Positions 2,671 through 21,753 of a stretch of DNA of 27,813 nucleotides are shown here, in pieces. This DNA is from a virus (Duplodnaviria; Caudoviricetes). The first letter of the stretch is position 1. Each line of letters opens with the position of its first letter. Location of the stretch: IMG/VR virus record IMGVR_UViG_3300010398_000034, positions 1 through 27,813 of that record; one strand, written 5' to 3'. Under the pieces are notes generated by a model. It saw only the letters and a program-made list of their open reading frames with translations, was not told the origin of the DNA and ran no database searches. The position numbers were made by a program, and so were the translations under genes.

Positions 2671-4395
2671 ATGGATGCGGTGCTGAAGCCGAGGAACCGG
2701 GCGCGGGTACCGGCGGGGTCGTCGTGGGAGCGGGGCTTTGCGCATATGGCGCGGCTGCTGGCGGCGGAACTGGGGGAGGGGCCGGCGGTGTCGCGGCGCA
2801 CGGAGGTGTTTCGGCCGTTGCCCCCGCAGCCGATGCGCTGGCTGCTGGAGACGTTTCCGACGTATTTTCAAAATGCGGCGGGAGAGCAGGTGCGATTGGC
2901 GGCGCACCATGAGGAGTTTTGGGCCTGGCTGTGGGCCTTGCGTCCTGGGGTGGCGGCGCGGACCTTTATTTCGATCTGGAGCCGGGGCGGTGGCAAGTCG
3001 ACCTCGACGGAGCTGGGGGCGACGGTGGTCGGGTATTATGGGCTGAGGCGCTACGGGCTGTACTGTAGTGCCGTCCAAAAACAGGCCAACGATCACGTCA
3101 GTAACATCGCCAGTGCGCTGGAGGGGCTGGGGGTCGAGCGGGCGATTAATCAGTACGGGTTTTCGCGCGGGTGGAACAGTCTGCGGCTGCGCACGGCAGA
3201 CGGCTTTACGCTGGACGCGATCGGGATGGACGCGGCGCTGCGGGGGGTACGGATCGACGAGTCCAGGCCCGATTTCATCATCCTGGATGACCTGGACGAG
3301 GAACTGGATACGGCGGAGACGATCGACCGCAAGATTGATATTTTGACGCGCAAGATTTTACCGACGGGGGATGCGGCGCTGACGGTGGTGGGCGTGCAAA
3401 ATCTCCCCAATAAAGACGGTATCTTCGCGCAGCTCGTCGATGGGCGGGCCGAGTTCCTCATGGACCGCTACGTGTCGGGGCCCCATCCGGCACTCAGTGG
3501 GCTGCCGGAGCAGGACTGGTATCAGGCGGAGCGGGAGGTGGCCGAGGACGGGGCGGTGGCGCGGACGCGGTTCCTGCTGCCGTCTGGGCGGCCGGTCTGG
3601 GCGGGGCAGGACCGGGGGGCGTGCGAGCAGCTCCTCAACACGATAGGGCCCAGGGCGTTTGAGATCGAGTGCCTGCATCGGATCAGGCGGCTGGGCGGCA
3701 AGGTGTTTAAGCGCGAGTGGTTTCGGGTGGTGGACGACTGGCCGCGCGGGGCGCACCTCGTGCGGTATTGGGATTTTGCCTCGACGGCGGAACCGGGGCC
3801 GCGGGCCAAGGGGCGGGCGACGGATCCGGACTGGACGGTGGGGCTGCTGCTGGCGCACTGGCGTGGACAGTTCTGGGTCTTGGACGTGCAGCGGGCGCGC
3901 CTGACCCCGCTGGGGGTCGAGGACTTGGTGCGGCAGACGGCGCGGGTCGATGGGCCGGGGGTGGAGGTGTGGCTGGAGGAGGAAGGCGGGTCGTCGGGCA
4001 AGAGTGTGACGGCGACGTATCGGCAGACGGTGCTGGCGGGCTATGCCGTACGCACGTGGCATACCACCGGGGGCAAGGGCGAGCGCATGAAGCCGGTGGC
4101 GGCGGCGGCCGAAGCGGGCAATGTGGCGCTCGTGGAGGGGTACTGGAACGCGGCGTTCCTCGAGGAAGTGACGCACTTTGGCGAGGCGGGGTGGCATGAC
4201 GATCAGGCGGACGCGCTGGCGGGGGCGCACTATGCACTGACCTTGGGGCGGACGCTCCTCCCCACCGATTTTTCGCTGGCGAAGGCGGTGGAGGGGCTCG
4301 GGCAGAAGGGGCTGGAGGCGCGGGCACAAGCGGCGGAGATGCTCCCGCAGCTGGCGTGGAGATGGGGCGTGCTGGAGGCAGAGGAGGTGATCTAG
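2671..4395 (+). CDS. terL: Terminase large subunit
   Basis: Walker A SRGGGKST, Walker B FIILDD, C-terminal RNase H-like nuclease motifs YWDFAST, DPDWTVG, HDDQADALA. Confidence 0.93.
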   Translation: MDAVLKPRNRARVPAGSSWERGFAHMARLLAAELGEGPAVSRRTEVFRPLPPQPMRWLLETFPTYFQNAAGEQVRLAAHHEEFWAWLWALRPGVAARTFISIWSRGGGKSTSTELGATVVGYYGLRRYGLYCSAVQKQANDHVSNIASALEGLGVERAINQYGFSRGWNSLRLRTADGFTLDAIGMDAALRGVRIDESRPDFIILDDLDEELDTAETIDRKIDILTRKILPTGDAALTVVGVQNLPNKDGIFAQLVDGRAEFLMDRYVSGPHPALSGLPEQDWYQAEREVAEDGAVARTRFLLPSGRPVWAGQDRGACEQLLNTIGPRAFEIECLHRIRRLGGKVFKREWFRVVDDWPRGAHLVRYWDFASTAEPGPRAKGRATDPDWTVGLLLAHWRGQFWVLDVQRARLTPLGVEDLVRQTARVDGPGVEVWLEEEGGSSGKSVTATYRQTVLAGYAVRTWHTTGGKGERMKPVAAAAEAGNVALVEGYWNAAFLEEVTHFGEAGWHDDQADALAGAHYALTLGRTLLPTDFSLAKAVEGLGQKGLEARAQAAEMLPQLAWRWGVLEAEEVI

Positions 4396-4617: not shown

Positions 4618-4851
4618 TTATTTTAACCTTACCACCTTTGATGTGGCAAGGCAAGGAGCACGCTGCCGATGCTGCGCACGCTGGCGCGCTCTGAAGCGTT
4701 GTGTGGCGCCTCTGGCTCTGCGTGCACAGAGGAGACAATGCCGGAGGGCATGATAGGCCGGGCGTCGTTTACAGCGCTGACAGAGCCGGATCTCTTGCAG
4801 GCTTTCCGTCGCGCTCATGGGTGGCTCAGGGTCTGGAGCGGTAGGCATCAA
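4618..4851 (-). CDS. Small basic zinc-finger-like protein
   Basis: CQRC...CLLC and an Arg-rich helix; ATGA overlap with the stop of the upstream 4848..5879 gene. Confidence 0.55.
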   Translation of the reverse strand: MMPTAPDPEPPMSATESLQEIRLCQRCKRRPAYHALRHCLLCARRARGATQRFRARQRAQHRQRAPCLATSKVVRLK

Positions 4852-5879
4852 TCGGTGTCCGTGCTTGTCTCGTGTCTGTCGTGTGGCAAGACATCGTCCC
4901 AGGCGGACGCCTCAAAGCGTATCGGATCTTTGAGGAGGCGGCCGTCAGGTCGTAAATAGCGATAGATATCATGGCCATTATGGGGCGTGCCTTCTAAGCG
5001 CATGGGATTGCTACCGGGCTGCGGCACTAAATTTCTGAGATCGCGTTCCTGCCAGGAGGCATTCCAGGCCGCGGCGATATAGCGGCTTAAGAGATAGGGC
5101 TCGAAGTGCCGGGCTGCCGTTGTAATCAGAAACTCATGGAGTTTCTTCCGCGGATTATATTGACTGAGCCCATCATCATGGGCAACATCGCGACAAAAGT
5201 CATGGGCGTCTTGTCCAGTATGATGGAGCAGGACGAGGGCAACCGCCATCACACTCGATATCCGTAAAATAGGGCTGAGAAAACGGGACGTGCCTTTGAT
5301 CAGATCCCAATACTCCTGGCATTCCTCCTTCCACAGATGGACAAAGGCCATACGGGTATCGACGACATCCGTATAGCGTTTCAGCACGCCGGCCCCACGA
5401 TTTGTGGCTTCAAAGCCGGAGGCTAACAAGGGCAAGCAGGCACTCAACTGCACCGTCTGCGCTTTATTGAGGCCCGTCGCTGCTGCCAGATCGACCGCAT
5501 CAAACATATTGCCGAGCGAGCGCGGACGGTTCCGATCATGGAGGGCATATTCGGGCTTATTGTCGTCTTCGAGGTCAATGGGAATATCGTGAAACCAAAA
5601 GCCATAGCTGAAGGCTGGATCATGAATGGACGCAAGCGCGTTGAGACGGTGATGGCCATTCATGATGGTATATTTGAGGAGCCCCTCGGGCAGCCGGCGT
5701 ACCGTGCGCGTAATGATCGTATTGCTCGGAAACGTCCGCCGCCACATCAAGAGTCCATATTTGATTTTTGTCTCACGGTTAATGGCGCGCTGTCCACTAA
5801 ACGCTTGGTCAAGAAGCATGCGCTGTGCGTCCTGTGTTGTCAGGACGCCATACTGCATGGTACCTTGATGGTGTGACAT
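4848..5879 (-). CDS. ParB/DGQHR-like domain protein
   Basis: 343 aa ORF with QRAIN...MNGHHRLNAL (variant of the DGQHRL motif)...DRNRPRS; RBS AAGGAG and its own promoter. Confidence 0.7.
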   Translation of the reverse strand: MSHHQGTMQYGVLTTQDAQRMLLDQAFSGQRAINRETKIKYGLLMWRRTFPSNTIITRTVRRLPEGLLKYTIMNGHHRLNALASIHDPAFSYGFWFHDIPIDLEDDNKPEYALHDRNRPRSLGNMFDAVDLAAATGLNKAQTVQLSACLPLLASGFEATNRGAGVLKRYTDVVDTRMAFVHLWKEECQEYWDLIKGTSRFLSPILRISSVMAVALVLLHHTGQDAHDFCRDVAHDDGLSQYNPRKKLHEFLITTAARHFEPYLLSRYIAAAWNASWQERDLRNLVPQPGSNPMRLEGTPHNGHDIYRYLRPDGRLLKDPIRFEASAWDDVLPHDRHETSTDTD

Positions 5880-5994: not shown

Positions 5995-6006
5995 GTCTCC
6001 CCGCGC

Positions 6007-6035
6007 TTGACACCCGCCCCCTCTCCGCCTACACT
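6007..6035 (+). promoter_or_regulatory. Sigma70-type promoter (portal segment)
   Basis: TTGACA-17 nt-TACACT, followed by the conserved leader. Confidence 0.8.
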
Positions 6036-6042
6036 GTGCGCC

Positions 6043-6110
6043 AGCGTGTTTTGGGAAGCCGGGCGGCTTGCTGGGACGCGCTTTGTGCATGCCTGCCGCT
6101 GGCTTTCCCC
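6043..6110 (+). ncRNA. Conserved promoter-proximal structured leader RNA, copy 1
   Basis: AGCGUGUUUUGG pairs with CUGGGACGCGCU, followed by UUGUG. Internal GGGAAGCC-GG-GCGGC can also pair with downstream GCCGC-U-GGCUUUCCC. Homologous to the copies at 10022 and 21641. Confidence 0.7.
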
Positions 6111-6111
6111 C

Positions 6112-7149
6112 TTAGAACAACCGCATCTGTTGGGTTTTCACGGTCCGATTCTTTTTCCTGTTACACCCGTAATGGGCGAGAGCGACATTTGGCCAGGTAT
6201 GGGTGCCGCCTTTACTCAGGGGAATAATGTGATCGGTCGTGGCACATAACGGATCAGGCCATGTGCGTTTGAGCGACACGCGCTTATGGCACAGGCTACA
6301 GATACCCTTGTCGCGGGCATAGAGGGTCGGCATATCGATCACGTCAATCTGCGTACCGCCGCGTTTGCGAGCACGGCGGGTCTCCTGATGCCTGCGCCCC
6401 ATCTCAGGATGCTCGCGGCGTCGCTCGGCCGCGCGTTGATTGAGCCGCTCACGATGGTCGCTTGCCGCGATATACACCTGAAATGCCTTGGCGCGACAGT
6501 CTTTGCAGTGTGCTTGACGCCCGTCTGGCTTGGACCGACAGATGGCATATTCCTCGAGCGGCTTCTCCATGAGGCAGCGGGGACAGATTTTGACGGTGGT
6601 ATGCGGGTCAAGATGCTCGACAGGCTTGGGAGCCCGGAGGCGCTCAGCATGCCGTTGATTATAGCCGCGCTGGTGTCGTGCACAACAGGCACGACACTGG
6701 GTTTTGAAGCCATCGCGACGCGCCAGATCGGCAGAGAAGGCCCGATAAGGGAGATCCTGCTCACAGCCGCTGCACCATTTGAGCGTATCAAGATCGACGG
6801 GCGGCGGGGTGGCAAGGTTCTGCGCTTTGCGCGCCTGTCGTGCCAGCGACTTCTGGTGCTTGCGGCACTCCCGACACTGGGACTGTAAGCCATATTGGCC
6901 TCTTTTGGATGTACCAAAGGCGCTTAACACAAGGTCGCGCCGACAGAGGCTACAGGGTTTGGTGGCGGGAAGGGGCTCACTGACAGGTTTCGGTGCCAGA
7001 ATCGATGTCCGATGCGTCCCATAATACGCCGTCCACGATGCCGCGGCACACGCTTTGCAATGCGACCGAAGGCCATCGCGTTTCTTGGCGTCCTGACTAA
7101 AGGCGTCAAGAGGGAGGTCACGTTGACAACCCGTACATTGTTTGGTCAT
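6112..7149 (-). CDS. Free-standing HNH endonuclease with four N-terminal CxxC...CxxC zinc-binding repeats
   Basis: Four KxCxxC-x~22-CxxC repeats; C-terminal ICSLC...TDHIIPLSKGGTHTWPNVALAHYGCNRKK. Start moved to ATG 7149 behind RBS GGAGGG. Ends QMRLF. Confidence 0.9.
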   Translation of the reverse strand: MTKQCTGCQRDLPLDAFSQDAKKRDGLRSHCKACAAASWTAYYGTHRTSILAPKPVSEPLPATKPCSLCRRDLVLSAFGTSKRGQYGLQSQCRECRKHQKSLARQARKAQNLATPPPVDLDTLKWCSGCEQDLPYRAFSADLARRDGFKTQCRACCARHQRGYNQRHAERLRAPKPVEHLDPHTTVKICPRCLMEKPLEEYAICRSKPDGRQAHCKDCRAKAFQVYIAASDHRERLNQRAAERRREHPEMGRRHQETRRARKRGGTQIDVIDMPTLYARDKGICSLCHKRVSLKRTWPDPLCATTDHIIPLSKGGTHTWPNVALAHYGCNRKKNRTVKTQQMRLF

Positions 7150-7170
7150 GATGCCCTCCATGTGGCAGTG

Positions 7171-7240
7171 TGGGACCATCAGGCTCTCCGTCGCATGGAC
7201 AACAGAAACTTGCACGCACCCGTCGGTGCGACCTGATGGC
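7171..7240 (-). ncRNA. HNH-associated three-way-junction leader RNA, copy A
   Basis: GCCAUCAGG-U-[CGCACC gacg GGUGCG]-UGCAAGU-[UUCUGUUGU ccau GCGACGGAG]-AG-CCUGAUGGU-CCCA. G.U pairs favour the - strand. Confidence 0.75.
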
Positions 7241-7246
7241 AGCATA

Positions 7247-9388: not shown

Positions 9389-9577
9389 ATGAAGCCCCTG
9401 CAACTGAGTGCCGGCCACTGGGTGAACGTCGACCTCATCACCCGCATCGTGTCTGACCGTGGTGGCTGGTATGTCTACGTCGGCCTGCGCGAAAGCCCCG
9501 TCATGCTGACGGCGGCAGAAGGGCAGGTGCTCGCCGCCTTTCTGGGGCTGGAGGTGGACGCCGCCACGAAAAGTTAA
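9389..9577 (+). CDS. Hypothetical 62-aa protein
   Basis: MKPLQLSAGHWVNVDLITRIVSDRGGWYVYVGL...; tightly packed after the previous ORF with high-GC3 codons. Confidence 0.6.
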   Translation: MKPLQLSAGHWVNVDLITRIVSDRGGWYVYVGLRESPVMLTAAEGQVLAAFLGLEVDAATKS

Positions 9578-9583
9578 GGGTGT

Positions 9584-9884
9584 TTGACGTCCTCCGCTCC
9601 CTGACGGAAGCGGATTCCTGGGAGGTCTTACCCAGAAGTTTACGGTTCAGGTTCTTGGGGTGTGCTCCAGTCGGCTGGACCCCGTACCCTGTGCAGCGCC
9701 CCGTCATTGGGCGCCCCTAGAGCAACCTCAAGAAGCTCTAGGACTTGCGAGAGGTTCGTGCTATGCGTACAACGTTTTACGCTGACACCTCCGGTCAGCA
9801 ACCACCTACGCTGTGTTGTCGAAGAACCTGGAACGGGAACAAAAATGGTCCGTGGCAATGGACACCATCTACTCCGCAGACCAC
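9584..9884 (-). ncRNA. Orphan structured RNA ending in an IS200/IS605-type right end (TnpB omega-RNA-like)
   Basis: 3' end GGAAUCCGCUUCC guca GGGAGCGGAGGACGUCAA resembles IS605/IS1341 right ends. A long-range stem CAGGUUCUU/AAGAACCUG encloses at least five hairpins. No credible ORF; promoter at 9890-9919. Confidence 0.6.
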
Positions 9885-9889
9885 ATATA

Positions 9890-9919
9890 AGTCTAGCAGT
9901 TTATTTGTTCCCTTTACAA
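9890..9919 (-). promoter_or_regulatory. Putative promoter for the orphan structured RNA
   Basis: TTGTAA-18 nt-TAGACT with extended TG; overlapped by the imperfect palindrome GCATTTATCTGTT/AACAAATAAACTGC. Confidence 0.5.
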
Positions 9920-9985
9920 CAGATAAATGCGCTACAGATACGTAGAAGTGACAGGAGGGCATGTATGTTATTTTGGTAGTGTGTA

Positions 9986-10015
9986 TTGACATTTCACTGC
10001 AACTGTCTTTACCTT
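9986..10015 (+). promoter_or_regulatory. Sigma70-type promoter (head segment)
   Basis: TTGACA-18 nt-TACCTT, followed by the conserved leader. Confidence 0.7.
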
Positions 10016-10021
10016 GTACGC

Positions 10022-10093
10022 AGCGTGTTTTGGGAAAAGGCCAGGCGTGGCTGCCCCTGAACGCGTTTTTTGTGTGCCTGCCTGCCCCTTTCC
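10022..10093 (+). ncRNA. Conserved promoter-proximal structured leader RNA, copy 2
   Basis: AGCGUGUUUUGGG pairs with CCCUGAACGCGUU, followed by UUUUGUG. Internal GGAAAAGGCCAGGC can pair with downstream GCCUGCCCCUUUCC. Confidence 0.7.
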
Positions 10094-10128
10094 TCGCCTG
10101 ACGTTCCTGCTGTGAAAGTCTCGCTGCC

Positions 10129-12938: not shown

Positions 12939-13199
12939 ATGCCAGATGATCCGTATCTGGATGAGTTGCTCCGGCACCTCTCCATCACGTACCGGCCCGA
13001 GCTTGAGCGCCCGCAGCGCCTGGCCCACACGTGGGGTGGCGTGGAGGGGTATCCGCCCCTCTCTGGCCGCATCCCGCGGGGCACCCAGGCGGACTGGTTT
13101 CGCCCTCTGACTGGCTGGGGACGCCTGCGGGACTGGGCCTGGAGTCGGACGACCCTGCTCGTATCGTGCCTCAGGCGGTGGGGGAAGGGGCTCCTCTAG
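12939..13199 (+). pseudogene. Degenerate duplicate of the major capsid N-terminus
   Basis: DPYLDELLRHLSITY...SGRIPRGTQADWFR aligns with capsid DPYVDILLTEISIGY...TGFIPGYMQSDWFR; the stop overlaps the HNH stop. Confidence 0.7.
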
Positions 13200-13939
13200 G
13201 AGCCCGCAAAGTCAAAGGTGAGGGTGGCATCTTCCGGGGACTGGCGCTTGGCAGAGCGCTGGCCCCGGCGCATCAGTTGGGCACTCTGTTCATGGGCATA
13301 GGTTGTCTGAAACCATACCAGAAACCTGGGTAGATTGACATGCTCCAGCAGACCATGCACAAGGCGATGACAGCCATAACACAGGCAGACAAAGTTCTCT
13401 ACCACGTTGTTCTTCCTGTTGCGGTCAATATGATGCAGATAGACCGCCCGGTCGGCATACGACACGCCGCACAGCACACAACACCCCTTGTCGCGCCTCC
13501 ACGCGATAACACCGCCTTCGCCATAGGTCTGACGGATGCGAAACTCTTTTTCGGCTTCCAGCGTCGTGCCCATCGTATTGACCATACGCTTGCGCCGGTG
13601 CTTCCGGGTGCCCTCCACAGCCGCAAGCATGTGTGTGACACAATGGCGTCGCGAGCTGGGGGCCAAACGCTCATCGCAATGCACACACAGCCCACGACTC
13701 AGATGGTCTTCTGCCCTCGCCTGCGCCATGGCTTGGCGCTTTTCCAGACAGTCGTCACACGTTACTTTGCCATTCGCTGTCGGTCTGCCGCAGGATCTGC
13801 ACTGGCCCCGCACGCTGCGCAGAATGGTGCGGACTGTGTTGTCATGAATTCCCATAATGCGTGCCGTTTTACGGAGTTCTCCCGTTTCCGCATAGACGGC
13901 CAGGACGCGGTCGCGATCAACAATTCTCGGTCGGGCCAT
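13196..13939 (-). CDS. Free-standing HNH endonuclease with N-terminal HTH and zinc fingers
   Basis: ELRKTARIMGIHDNTVRTIL (HTH), two Cys/His clusters, RDKGCCVLCG...LHHIDRNRKNNVVENFVCLCYGCHRLVH; RBS GAGGAG. Confidence 0.9.
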   Translation of the reverse strand: MARPRIVDRDRVLAVYAETGELRKTARIMGIHDNTVRTILRSVRGQCRSCGRPTANGKVTCDDCLEKRQAMAQARAEDHLSRGLCVHCDERLAPSSRRHCVTHMLAAVEGTRKHRRKRMVNTMGTTLEAEKEFRIRQTYGEGGVIAWRRDKGCCVLCGVSYADRAVYLHHIDRNRKNNVVENFVCLCYGCHRLVHGLLEHVNLPRFLVWFQTTYAHEQSAQLMRRGQRSAKRQSPEDATLTFDFAGS

Positions 13940-15092: not shown

Positions 15093-16133
15093 CTAAAAGA
15101 TACCTAATTGCTCATTAAAAGGTAACATATTAACCGGGGTCCCGTAGCGCAACTCAAAGCGCACTCGGATGGAAGCCAGCAGTTCTGGGCTTTCCAGGCG
15201 ATTGTTCTTCAAGGTGTTACAGTAATGATGGGCCAGTTTCGTGTTACGATAGCTATGGTCCCCGCCACGTGTCACTGGAATGCGGTGGTCTATGGTGGGG
15301 ATACGCTTATCGGGCCATTTCAGACCGGCATCGACGGGGTAGCCACAGAGAGTGCACATGCCATGATCCCGTTCGTACACCAGGGCAATATCAATAAAGC
15401 GATCCGTGATCTGTGCCCCTCTGAGCAAGGCGCGTCGGCGCTGCGATGCCGCCCGGCGATAGCTCGGATGTTCCAGAAACCACCGGATGCTTTTTTGCCG
15501 CATTTTCTCCATGCGTACCGGATTGCTTCGCGCTTTCTCCCGGTCGCGGGCACCATAGATTTTGACTGCTTCGGGATGGGCCAGTTGCCACCGGCGCGTC
15601 TTGGCATAAATCACCGCACGCCTCTCAGGGTCCTGCCGCACTTTCTTGGCATGCCGATTCGCGATAGGTCTGCGCTTCTCAGGGTTTTCTCTATTCCACG
15701 CGGCATTGCTCGCTTTACGGCACGTGGTGCAGAATGTATCCATCCCCGTCTTGCTGTAGGGATTATCGTAAAACTCGCTCGCTACCTTCGTCTGTCCACA
15801 CTGCGAACACGCTTTCTCAACAATGCGCTCATCACGGGGATGGATCGGCTGGCTCCGCCCGTTATGACAGTCCTTACATTCAGCTTGCAAGCCATCAGGG
15901 CTGCGCGACCACTTATGAAACTCCGAGCCAGGCTTGACTTCTTGACACCTCGAACATGCTTTTGTCTCAACAGCAATCTTGGGCGCTTGCGTCCTGGCAC
16001 TATCGCGCTTTTTAAAGCACTCCTTGCACTCAGCCATGACACCAAGACGACCACCTTTGGCCTTATGAAACGCGCTCAAGGGCTTGGGATCACCACACTT
16101 GGAACATACTTTAGTCAGTTCTGGGGCTTCCAT
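15093..16133 (-). CDS. Free-standing HNH endonuclease with three CxxC...CxxC zinc-binding repeats (paralog of 6112..7149)
   Basis: Three KxCSxC-x~22-CxxC repeats; YERDHGMCTLCG...TIDHRIPVTRGGDHSYRNTKLAHHYCNTLK. ATG 16133 behind AGGAGG. Ends QLGIF. Confidence 0.9.
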   Translation of the reverse strand: MEAPELTKVCSKCGDPKPLSAFHKAKGGRLGVMAECKECFKKRDSARTQAPKIAVETKACSRCQEVKPGSEFHKWSRSPDGLQAECKDCHNGRSQPIHPRDERIVEKACSQCGQTKVASEFYDNPYSKTGMDTFCTTCRKASNAAWNRENPEKRRPIANRHAKKVRQDPERRAVIYAKTRRWQLAHPEAVKIYGARDREKARSNPVRMEKMRQKSIRWFLEHPSYRRAASQRRRALLRGAQITDRFIDIALVYERDHGMCTLCGYPVDAGLKWPDKRIPTIDHRIPVTRGGDHSYRNTKLAHHYCNTLKNNRLESPELLASIRVRFELRYGTPVNMLPFNEQLGIF

Positions 16134-16156
16134 GACACCTCCTGTACGGTGAAAGA

Positions 16157-16231
16157 TGGGGTGTTCAGGCTCCCAGCCTCTACAGGGAAGCCAGGACTTG
16201 CTCGGACGCTGATCAGGCGTCACCTGAACAC
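16157..16231 (-). ncRNA. HNH-associated three-way-junction leader RNA, copy B
   Basis: GUGUUCAGG-U-[GACGC cugauca GCGUC]-CGAGCAAGU-[CCUGGCUUC ccugua GAGGCUGGG]-AG-CCUGAACAC-CCCA. Confidence 0.75.
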
Positions 16232-18831: not shown

Positions 18832-19461
18832 TTATACGTACAGTGGCAGCCTTGGTCCACGGCCAGGGGCCATACCATGCTTGTGGAGAAAGCGTTGCAT
18901 GGTGCATTGGCTGACGCCAAAGTGTTTGGCTAAGCGTACCTGTCCATACCGATAGGGATCATAGAGACGGATGATCTCTGGCAGGTCAGCCTCTGTGAGC
19001 TTGGTATTACTGGGTAAGCGCCGGCGTCCTTTGGTGATAGAGTCCTGGACATTTTGCTGTTGCGTGCCAGGCCAGAGATGGGCCGGATTCACGCAAGCAG
19101 GGTTATCCCCTTCGGGGCAGTTATGACAGATAAGCATGTCGTCGGGAATAACACCATGGGTCAGGACATAGGCGGCTCGGTGCGCCGGTATGTTCTTATG
19201 GTGGGTGATCGCAAACTGGCCATACCCATCTTTCCCTTTCGCACCTTGCCAGATCCAGCAGCCGTCCGCAGTCGTTTTGAGCACTTTGACCCAAAAGCGA
19301 TCCCACAGGCTGAGTTTTCTTGGACAGGATTTCCCTTGCCGCGCTCGTCCTTCAAAGCGGCTTTTGCATGGGTGCGAGCAAAACTTTGCTGTCTCCGCAC
19401 GATAGGGATGGACAAGAAAGGTCGTACCACATTCAAGACAGATAAGGGATATGCGTACCAC
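18832..19461 (-). CDS. Free-standing HNH endonuclease (HNH_3 type) with N-terminal zinc ribbon and C-terminal HTH
   Basis: CLECG...FCSHPC; RFWVKV...CWIWQGAK...GYGQF...AHRAAY...ICHNC...DNPACVNPAHLWPGTQQQNVQD; LAKHFGVSQCTM. GTG 19461 behind GAGGAG. Confidence 0.9.
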   Translation of the reverse strand: MVRISLICLECGTTFLVHPYRAETAKFCSHPCKSRFEGRARQGKSCPRKLSLWDRFWVKVLKTTADGCWIWQGAKGKDGYGQFAITHHKNIPAHRAAYVLTHGVIPDDMLICHNCPEGDNPACVNPAHLWPGTQQQNVQDSITKGRRRLPSNTKLTEADLPEIIRLYDPYRYGQVRLAKHFGVSQCTMQRFLHKHGMAPGRGPRLPLYV

Positions 19462-19486
19462 GTGATGTCTCCTCAACAGACGAGTA

Positions 19487-21322: not shown

Positions 21323-21607
21323 ATGCGCCTGTCGGAGGTGATCGTTGGGGGCATTGGGGTGCTACTGGCGGGGGCGATCGTGCTGGCGCAACAACCCGCG
21401 CCCACCCCGCCGCCCTCCCCGCCGCCCTGTGATGAGCAACTGCGGATCACGACGACCCGCATGGATATCAAGCGCCAACAGGCCGATCTCGCCGAGCAGA
21501 ACGTGGCGCAACTCCTCGAGCAACTGCGCCAGGCCCAGGTCCAGAATGCCGAGTTGAAGAGCGAGATCGACAAGCTCAAGGATGGCGCAAAACCCCCAGG
21601 CAATTGA
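21323..21607 (+). CDS. Protein with N-terminal hydrophobic segment and coiled coil (i-spanin-like or secreted)
   Basis: VIVGGIGVLLAGAIVLA, Pro-rich linker, Q/E/L-rich helix. Confidence 0.65.
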   Translation: MRLSEVIVGGIGVLLAGAIVLAQQPAPTPPPSPPPCDEQLRITTTRMDIKRQQADLAEQNVAQLLEQLRQAQVQNAELKSEIDKLKDGAKPPGN

Positions 21608-21633
21608 CTTTTCTTTTCCCTTGGGTGTACAGT
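21604..21633 (+). promoter_or_regulatory. Sigma70-type promoter (neck/tail segment)
   Basis: TTGACT-18 nt-TACAGT, followed by the conserved leader. Confidence 0.7.
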
Positions 21634-21640
21634 GTACAGC

Positions 21641-21708
21641 GCGTGTTTTGGGAAGCCTGCAGGTGGCCCAGGACGCGCTTTTTTTGTGCCGGCCTGCCGA
21701 CTTTCTCC
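21641..21708 (+). ncRNA. Conserved promoter-proximal structured leader RNA, copy 3
   Basis: GCGUGUUUUGGG pairs with CCCAGGACGCGC, followed by UUUUUUUGUG. Internal GCAGGU and GGGAAG can pair with downstream GCCUGC and CUUUCU. Confidence 0.7.
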
Positions 21709-21753
21709 GCACTCTCTGCCTGTGCTGCCTGCGCCCGCAACCAAGGACCTGCC

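Follow-up and report, generated by a model that had tools for sequence, protein, structure and literature searches.

What is a structured RNA with the right end of an IS200/IS605 transposon doing in a phage that carries no TnpA or TnpB gene beside it? The RNA, of about 300 nt, is encoded on the minus strand, flanked on one side by a small convergent ORF and on the other by a divergent head-gene promoter. The window, as we call the whole 27,813-nt stretch analyzed, is a 27.8-kb virus record that is 22% complete, and its gene content is that of a head-tail module (terminase, Mu-type portal, XkdF protease and tail sheath). The RNA is an ORF-less IS200/IS605 derivative, a gene-less piece of a TnpB transposon. 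An extended -10, an optional 5' hairpin, a leader of about 65 nt, an omega-RNA scaffold, the right end and a variable guide follow one another in the element (Table 1). The leader is composed of a boxA-like stretch and two covarying 7-bp helices.

Table 1. Parts of the window copy and its immediate neighborhood
Feature	Position in window	Strand	Basis and remarks
Small convergent phage ORF, 62 aa	9389..9577	+	Sequence reading; stop codon inside guide; outside element
Predicted guide (flanking DNA)	9564..9583	-	Differs in every copy; overlaps stop codon of convergent gene
IS200/IS605 right end: GAAT guide motif, subterminal hairpin, TCAA	9584..9618	-	End shared by tnpB-bearing loci
TnpB omega-RNA-type scaffold (putative)	9619..9764	-	Compensatory changes; resident tnpB 3' matches in three genomes
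Leader core: P2, GGUU, P3 with GNAGN loop, GUAAAA, CG	9765..9814	-	Family covariation
boxA-like stretch	9815..9828	-	2 mismatches to gamma-proteobacterial consensus GYTCTTTAANA
5' hairpin (9881-9848) and U-rich tail	9838..9881	-	Subfamily-specific; replaced or absent in other subfamilies
Extended -10 promoter-like site (TG-n-TAnnnT), TGCTAGACT	9890..9898	-	Sequence; same site in L002, L010, L011
Promoter-upstream stretch common to window and L010	9899..9930	-	Likeness ends at about 9930

The structured RNA and its transposon ends

The initial annotation, made from the sequence, had placed a structured RNA at the correct coordinates and strand. The fold of a 391-nt stretch has z = -3.49, and 0 of 100 shuffles equal it. 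When the full-length close copies are compared, three sequences only, 98.3% of the 58 proposed pairs are formed, and double-sided changes number 11 against 4.0 in shuffles. Among the helices proposed at first, the 5' hairpin, GCUGAC/GUCAGC, CCUAGAGC/GCUCUAGG, UCCAG/CUGGA and the right-end hairpin are supported. GCGCCC/GGGCGC is invariant in the three full-length copies and by eye has compensated changes in a fourth. The GCGUA/UACGC helix had been drawn in the wrong register: the family keeps ACAGCGU/ACGUUGU, with a mean of 6.72 of 7 pairs, and with the register fixed only 1 of 43 sequences keeps 4 of the 5 pairs of the earlier helix. A possible AACCUC/GAGGUU pseudoknot is uncompensated and is broken in the copy of the phage G001. 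The long closing helix CAGGUUCUU/AAGAACCUG is found in the MFE fold, but a nearer, competing GGUUC/GAACC pairing sits at the family position; across the family the closing helix, P1, covaries weakly (5.45 vs 5.27 ± 0.06). The scaffold contains hairpins at 9742-9716 and 9714-9696, a two-tier stem, an AAGAACC motif and a hairpin before the right end.

A promoter had also been claimed. The extended -10 is present, and 35 of 43 family members have a -10-like site upstream, compared with 30% of shuffles, but a promoter and terminator scanner run on the window called neither this site nor any terminator. Transcription is predicted to begin a few bases downstream of it. The Ktedonobacteraceae copies begin straight at the boxA-like stretch, right after the -10 site. 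A 20-codon ORF behind GGAG (9809-9871, minus strand) runs through the 5' hairpin and leader of the window copy; its frame is kept in 4 of 4 close copies and is absent from other subfamilies.

As first annotated, the window contains no TnpA or TnpB gene. No tnpB, dead TnpB or tnpA/Y1 transposase is encoded in the window or in two complete phages with related copies, G001 (54 kb) and G002. A nuclease-dead tnpB beside the guide RNA would have pointed to TldR; no TnpB-like frame was found in the window (22% of the genome), G001 or G002, and the controls were recovered. A full tnpB-like ORF is present in 14 of 18 other viral loci bearing the same right end, and the cognate TnpB of the window scaffold was not found among them. 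We take the GAAT/TCAA pair that flanks the subterminal hairpin (9618-9584) to follow the guide-cleavage rule of IS608. Rfam models gave zero matches on the window at E up to 1. The HgcC model (RF00062) did match the last 100 nt or so of the G001 copy (E 6e-4) and of L010 (E 0.43), both below the gathering score, and this sub-threshold match would mark the 3' part of the window subfamily as omega-RNA-like. HgcC, or sotRNA, is described as the right-end hairpin RNA of tnpB elements (PMC4615843). It covers only the 3' third of these two copies, its scores are sub-gathering, and the window copy lacks a match.

Pattern scans returned three close relatives of the window copy: L002, in G001 (83% over 299 nt), L010 (86% over 338 nt) and L011 (85% over 222 nt), the last interrupted by an inverted tnpB 3' end. 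Homology to L002 and L010 ends precisely at TCAA (9584), and every 3' flank is different; 12 copies have 12 different guides. In mobile copies the guide is just the flank of the insertion site. Both L010 and L011 have kept a left end, overlooked in the initial annotation, as a hairpin after TTAC, in keeping with the IS608 guide rule. This hairpin is absent from the window within 3 mismatches, and since similarity stops at about 9930, a left end of the L010/L011 type is missing from the window copy. Lacking the hairpin, the copy is predicted to be immobile, yet still expressed.

DNA contigs from three sequencing runs contained no joint across the element, and a loose end at 9922 leads into L010-type sequence. 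A search with the protease gave no related viral locus, and so no empty site was found for the window copy. Of the sequencing runs looked up, none carrying the element was an RNA run. A viral scan for the left end and a genome scan with a subfamily-specific 18-mer each gave zero matches. By BLAST the RNA had one 36-nt right-end match among annotated phages and none among plasmids. An AT-rich phage gene (L004, L006) is identical over 23 nt, but the match is antisense in an unrelated ORF, and we took it as chance.

Other features of the window were recorded in passing. Three HNH endonuclease genes (6112-7245, 15093-16223 and 18832-19476, minus strand) lie opposite the strand of the structural module, and an ORF between head genes (13196-13939, minus strand) has a weak HTH match. 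A long imperfect inverted repeat of short palindromic units is found near the contig start (99-223). A promoter-like pair (TTGAC followed by TACACT, TACCTT or TACAGT) occurs three times on the plus strand (5996-6118, 9975-10097 and 21593-21715), each time followed by GCGTGTTTTGGGAA, a variable hairpin and ACGCG(C/T)TTT. The three are likely copies of a phage late promoter with a conserved leader RNA.

A leader core in phages and six phyla

Diverged copies in G001 and G002 came to light in a scan for the right end. Common to them is a core motif in which GGUU is followed by a 7-bp stem closed by a GNAGN loop, then by GUAAAA, seven bases and CG. To determine how widely it occurs, we scanned genomes with this motif and found at least 80 loci. 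Of 84 matches among those listed, 71 form at least 6 of the 7 pairs of the stem, P3, of which the scan pattern required only the closing pair. By their titles the genomes are from Chloroflexota, Synergistota, Acidobacteriota, Nitrospirota, Competibacteraceae and Actinomycetota (six phyla), and phages are also represented. The 5' third of the element, which the initial annotation had not set apart, is a separate module common to these phyla and grafted onto different TnpB scaffolds.

Covariation was measured in 43 non-redundant cores, after removal of L171 and L173 (chance matches by eye), L057 (truncated 5') and near-identical cores (>93%). In the window copy P2 is formed by 9814-9808 with 9775-9769, and P3 spans 9799-9781. 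P2, which was in no search pattern, forms 6.72 of 7 pairs against 5.10 ± 0.12 with permuted partners (maximum 5.51 in 2000). Over the 43 members, P2 and P3 together are paired in 95% of cells, with a covariation of 0.979 against 0.199 when shuffled and at most 0.184 when slid; the P3 figures are inflated by the selection filter on its stem. G-U pairs outnumber A-C mismatches in P2, which fits an RNA on this strand. The invariance of GUU, GNAG, GUAAAA and CG is partly built in, as the search patterns fixed those letters. Rfam has no match for the leader core.

A model built from the core finds 4 copies in G001, 3 in G002 and a single one in the window, whereas 13 tnpB loci and 4 rRNA loci contain none. 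The copies in the two complete phages are diverged and have different guides. The distribution of the family is patchy. The model search had limited sensitivity, only 28 candidates being scored per genome; among 150 genomes sampled from each phylum, it was positive in none of the other Chloroflexota and in 1 of the other Acidobacteriota. By pattern search the motif is found in 6 of 201 Synergistota and in 17 of 61 genomes of the K. racemifer family, a tally that comes with many control hits and includes the unpublished G348, from which no conclusion is drawn.

Some copies depart from the common arrangement. L193 (1779-2074, minus strand) has two tandem cores, the first followed by a left-end-like hairpin and the second by a long scaffold ending in TTCAA. 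Tandem GTTC-N7-GTTC repeats lie upstream of the cassette promoter in G001 (L026, about 5400-5450; L041, about 3400-3470), L175 and L219. These resemble what we take to be the alphaproteobacterial type of LexA box, and would suggest damage-induced expression.

Scaffolds joined to the leader

A strict IS605 right end lies behind the core in 27 of 40 members; the opposite strand has it in 0 of 40, and random windows in 5 of 313. Among 20 further Ktedonobacteraceae copies, 14 pass one of two right-end rules, 4 have a TCAG end as judged by eye, and the other 2 are truncated. Some members have IS607-like ends, also by eye. The right end is unrecognizable behind a few cores (L083, L276 and the first copy in L193). 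One of these, L276 (G006:C485, 4962-5050), precedes a short ORF. The L276 and L083 cores possibly have a role outside omega-RNA cassettes. No ORF of more than 77 aa starting with Met was found around 48 cores.

G003 encodes 25 copies by pattern. All 23 with a left end start at CCAT, and 23 of 24 end in TCAC; their flanks are unrelated, with no target duplication seen. CCAT also precedes a resident tnpA and tnpB element and a tnpB gene in this genome. The G003 element is 92% identical to the resident tnpA and tnpB element at the left end and 90% over the last 140 nt or so, and the related tnpB gene has intact RuvC D-E-D motifs. In K. racemifer two scaffolds, each matching a different tnpB family (90% over 60 nt and 71% over 272 nt), share one left end and leader, and G006 has the same design (88% over 66 nt to a tnpB element). 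Thus the sequence that follows the leader resembles resident tnpB 3' ends in three genomes, and in two the left end does as well. The shared part begins just past the codons of the last conserved TnpB motif, D-x-N-A-A-x-x-I. Because both scaffolds and left ends match resident tnpB elements, the leader takes the place of the tnpB ORF, and it has become linked to more than one scaffold. Y1 transposase matches are encoded in 5 of 5 hosts tested. The comparison of these sequences shows that relatives of the window copy have recently been mobile. Leader-omega-RNA cassettes are also insertion targets themselves: L043 (1650-2980) has an intact tnpB element (399 aa) at TTAC inside a cassette, and in L011 a tnpB 3' end is inserted in the opposite orientation.

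Possible roles of the leader

Comparison with the gamma-proteobacterial boxA consensus, GYTCTTTAANA (10.1101/091223), gave a perfect boxA-like stretch in 6 of 43 members and one within 1 mismatch in 21 of 43. A pooled profile of the boxA-like stretch failed to distinguish rRNA regions, of which 1 of 20 fell below the 5% level. In a second attempt with lineage subsets, 9 of 10 K. racemifer rRNA leader or spacer regions scored within the best 0.6% of their 328 control windows; for Fretibacterium, 6 of 6 rRNA regions were in the best 5% of 200 windows. The rRNA operons of a single genome are not independent of one another, and it is by position that the rRNA sites are assumed to be boxA. In reports on boxA, it raises the level of untranslated CRISPR precursors about 10-fold (PMC7862264), and NusB binds divergent boxA outside the Proteobacteria (PMC13753749).

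The anatomy of the element, its covarying leader, the fusions to different TnpB scaffolds and the loss of the left end are shown by sequence comparison. For the function we lean, with moderate confidence, to a leader that stands in the place of tnpB, recruits Nus factors and stabilizes an untranslated omega-RNA for loading by TnpB in trans. Ordinary elements obtain their omega-RNA from the end of a translated mRNA, which TnpB trims (PMC10278001). For a copy with no gene, transcription has to proceed without ribosomes. Transcription would start from the extended -10. NusB-S10 would then bind the boxA-like stretch and shield the ribosome-free RNA from Rho, while the folded leader domain may stabilize or present the transcript. 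A host TnpB would trim the 5' end, load the RNA in trans and cut sites composed of the target motif and the flank. An intact copy would thereby target its own excision scar and be retained, in line with the published retention model (10.1101/2023.03.14.532601). Nus recruitment is favored because of the boxA likeness, the lineage tests and the known effects of boxA on CRISPR precursors and NusB binding. The boxA-like stretch of the window, with its 2 mismatches, may alternatively pair with 9759-9753, and such pairing would hinder NusB binding. Many stand-alone omega-RNAs manage without such a leader.

The invariant GUU, GNAG, GUAAAA and CG are not accounted for by boxA. The leader core could instead be catalytic or block nucleases: as a self-cleaving ribozyme it would generate the 5' end of the omega-RNA, or as an exoribonuclease-resistant knot protect it, without Nus factors. 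Two 7-bp helices of fixed length enclose a sequence-conserved internal loop, and the core abuts the scaffold start, just after the position of the D-x-N-A-A-x-x-I codons in tnpB. The conserved AAC upstream might pair with GUU to tie a knot, as 42 of 43 members have A[AC][CT] there, but GUU was fixed by the search pattern. No Rfam ribozyme family matched at E up to 0.5-1, boxA likeness tracks the host lineage, and TnpB is reported to be able to trim its own 5' end (PMC10278001). We regard a ribozyme or knot as rather unlikely and retain it because the conserved internal loop is not accounted for.

The copies in phages raise the possibility of a guide repertoire, domesticated by the phages and redirecting or soaking up host TnpB or TldR against competing phages or host genes. 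The two complete phages have 4 and 3 diverged copies with different guides and neither tnpA nor tnpB, and two close copies without a left end have kept their structure. The guide of the window, as annotated earlier, has no second match in the window, its best 16-mer having 4 mismatches, and none in G001. A G001 cassette guide does match the window on the minus strand (4877-4892; 15 of 16 nt), close to the 3' end of the ORF at 4848-5879. The chance of such a match is about 0.035 over 12 guides, and it is one borderline match in 36 comparisons. It is preceded by GACGAT, not by the TTAC of the subfamily left ends, and we treat it as a lead for phage-phage conflict and no more. In addition, most phage copies keep their left-end hairpins, and chromosomes too show high copy numbers. 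Domestication of this kind is distinctly unlikely in our judgment. Of the original interpretations, an ORF-less IS element and a stand-alone guide RNA hold together, but we found no evidence for a decoy, a TldR partner or a chosen target.

We also considered, and think unlikely, that the leader is an undescribed RNA class that makes any TnpB scaffold a free-standing guide gene, and that phages without TnpB collect several such cassettes, a small library of guides turning host TnpB against rival phages. If true, this would be a protein-free, CRISPR-like parasitism of OMEGA nucleases, with the leader class either nucleating an antitermination complex or cleaving or protecting its own 5' end.

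Alternatively, the leader could be mainly a cis-acting antitermination or read-through device past the right end that makes the insertion tolerable, with the guide role secondary. A few cores lack a right end, L276 with its downstream ORF among them, and the promoter, boxA-like stretch and hairpin with a five-base loop resemble what we take to be a nut site. However, 4 of 7 measured phage copies, including that of the window, in which the convergent stop is 6 nt from the element end, point into a convergent stop codon 5-34 nt away, so there is nothing to express downstream. The scaffold is also intact, with compensatory changes. A cis device is highly unlikely in our view. A decayed tnpB 3' fragment or neutral remnant is scarcely credible: the window copy has lost its left end, but it has no tnpB coding trace and no tnpB C-terminal motif in any frame, its helices covary (three copies, with 11 compensated pairs), none of the 13 tnpB loci has the leader, and the complete omega-RNA scaffold is under structural selection.

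Returning to a leader that recruits Nus factors, we compared the family with known systems. Stand-alone omega-RNAs and PATEs are already published, while the leader is new to Rfam; a literature search, with supplements and most subscription journals outside its scope, found no published description of it. PATEs are ORF-less IS200/IS605 elements encoding omega-RNAs (10.1101/2023.03.14.532601). They share with our elements the gene-less transposon ends, the omega-RNA and the reliance on TnpA and TnpB in trans; the accessible text of that report describes no dedicated leader, and the window copy, unlike PATEs, lacks a left end. The leader family also differs in that one leader is found on IS605 scaffolds ending in TCAA, TCAC or TCAG and, by eye, on IS607-like ends. 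The stand-alone omega-RNAs of OMEGA systems are mobilized guide loci without effector or transposase that act in trans (PMC10691335). The leader family is likewise made up of guide loci without either gene and is also found in K. racemifer, but its function in trans is putative, and a shared 5' module is not described in the accessible part of PMC10691335. Like rRNA leaders and CRISPR arrays led by boxA (10.1101/091223, PMC7862264, PMC13753749), the family has a boxA-like 5' stretch on a non-coding transcript; unlike in these, the stretch is able to base-pair and has a fixed place beside a two-helix motif carried by a transposon, and its Nus binding is putative. IStrons also combine an extra structured RNA between IS605/IS607 ends with an omega-RNA (10.1101/2023.11.20.567912), whereas the window element has no group I intron match, has an internal promoter and ends in TCAA rather than a terminal G.

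According to the available portion of the OMEGA report, it is unknown what stand-alone omega-RNAs do (PMC10691335). The leader family shows how omega-RNAs may be expressed without their mRNA, through one portable leader joined repeatedly to unrelated TnpB scaffolds. Test pairs of a cassette and a resident TnpB are encoded within single genomes, including that of the cultured K. racemifer. If the leader raises omega-RNA levels, it might be of use in TnpB-based editing of bacteria.
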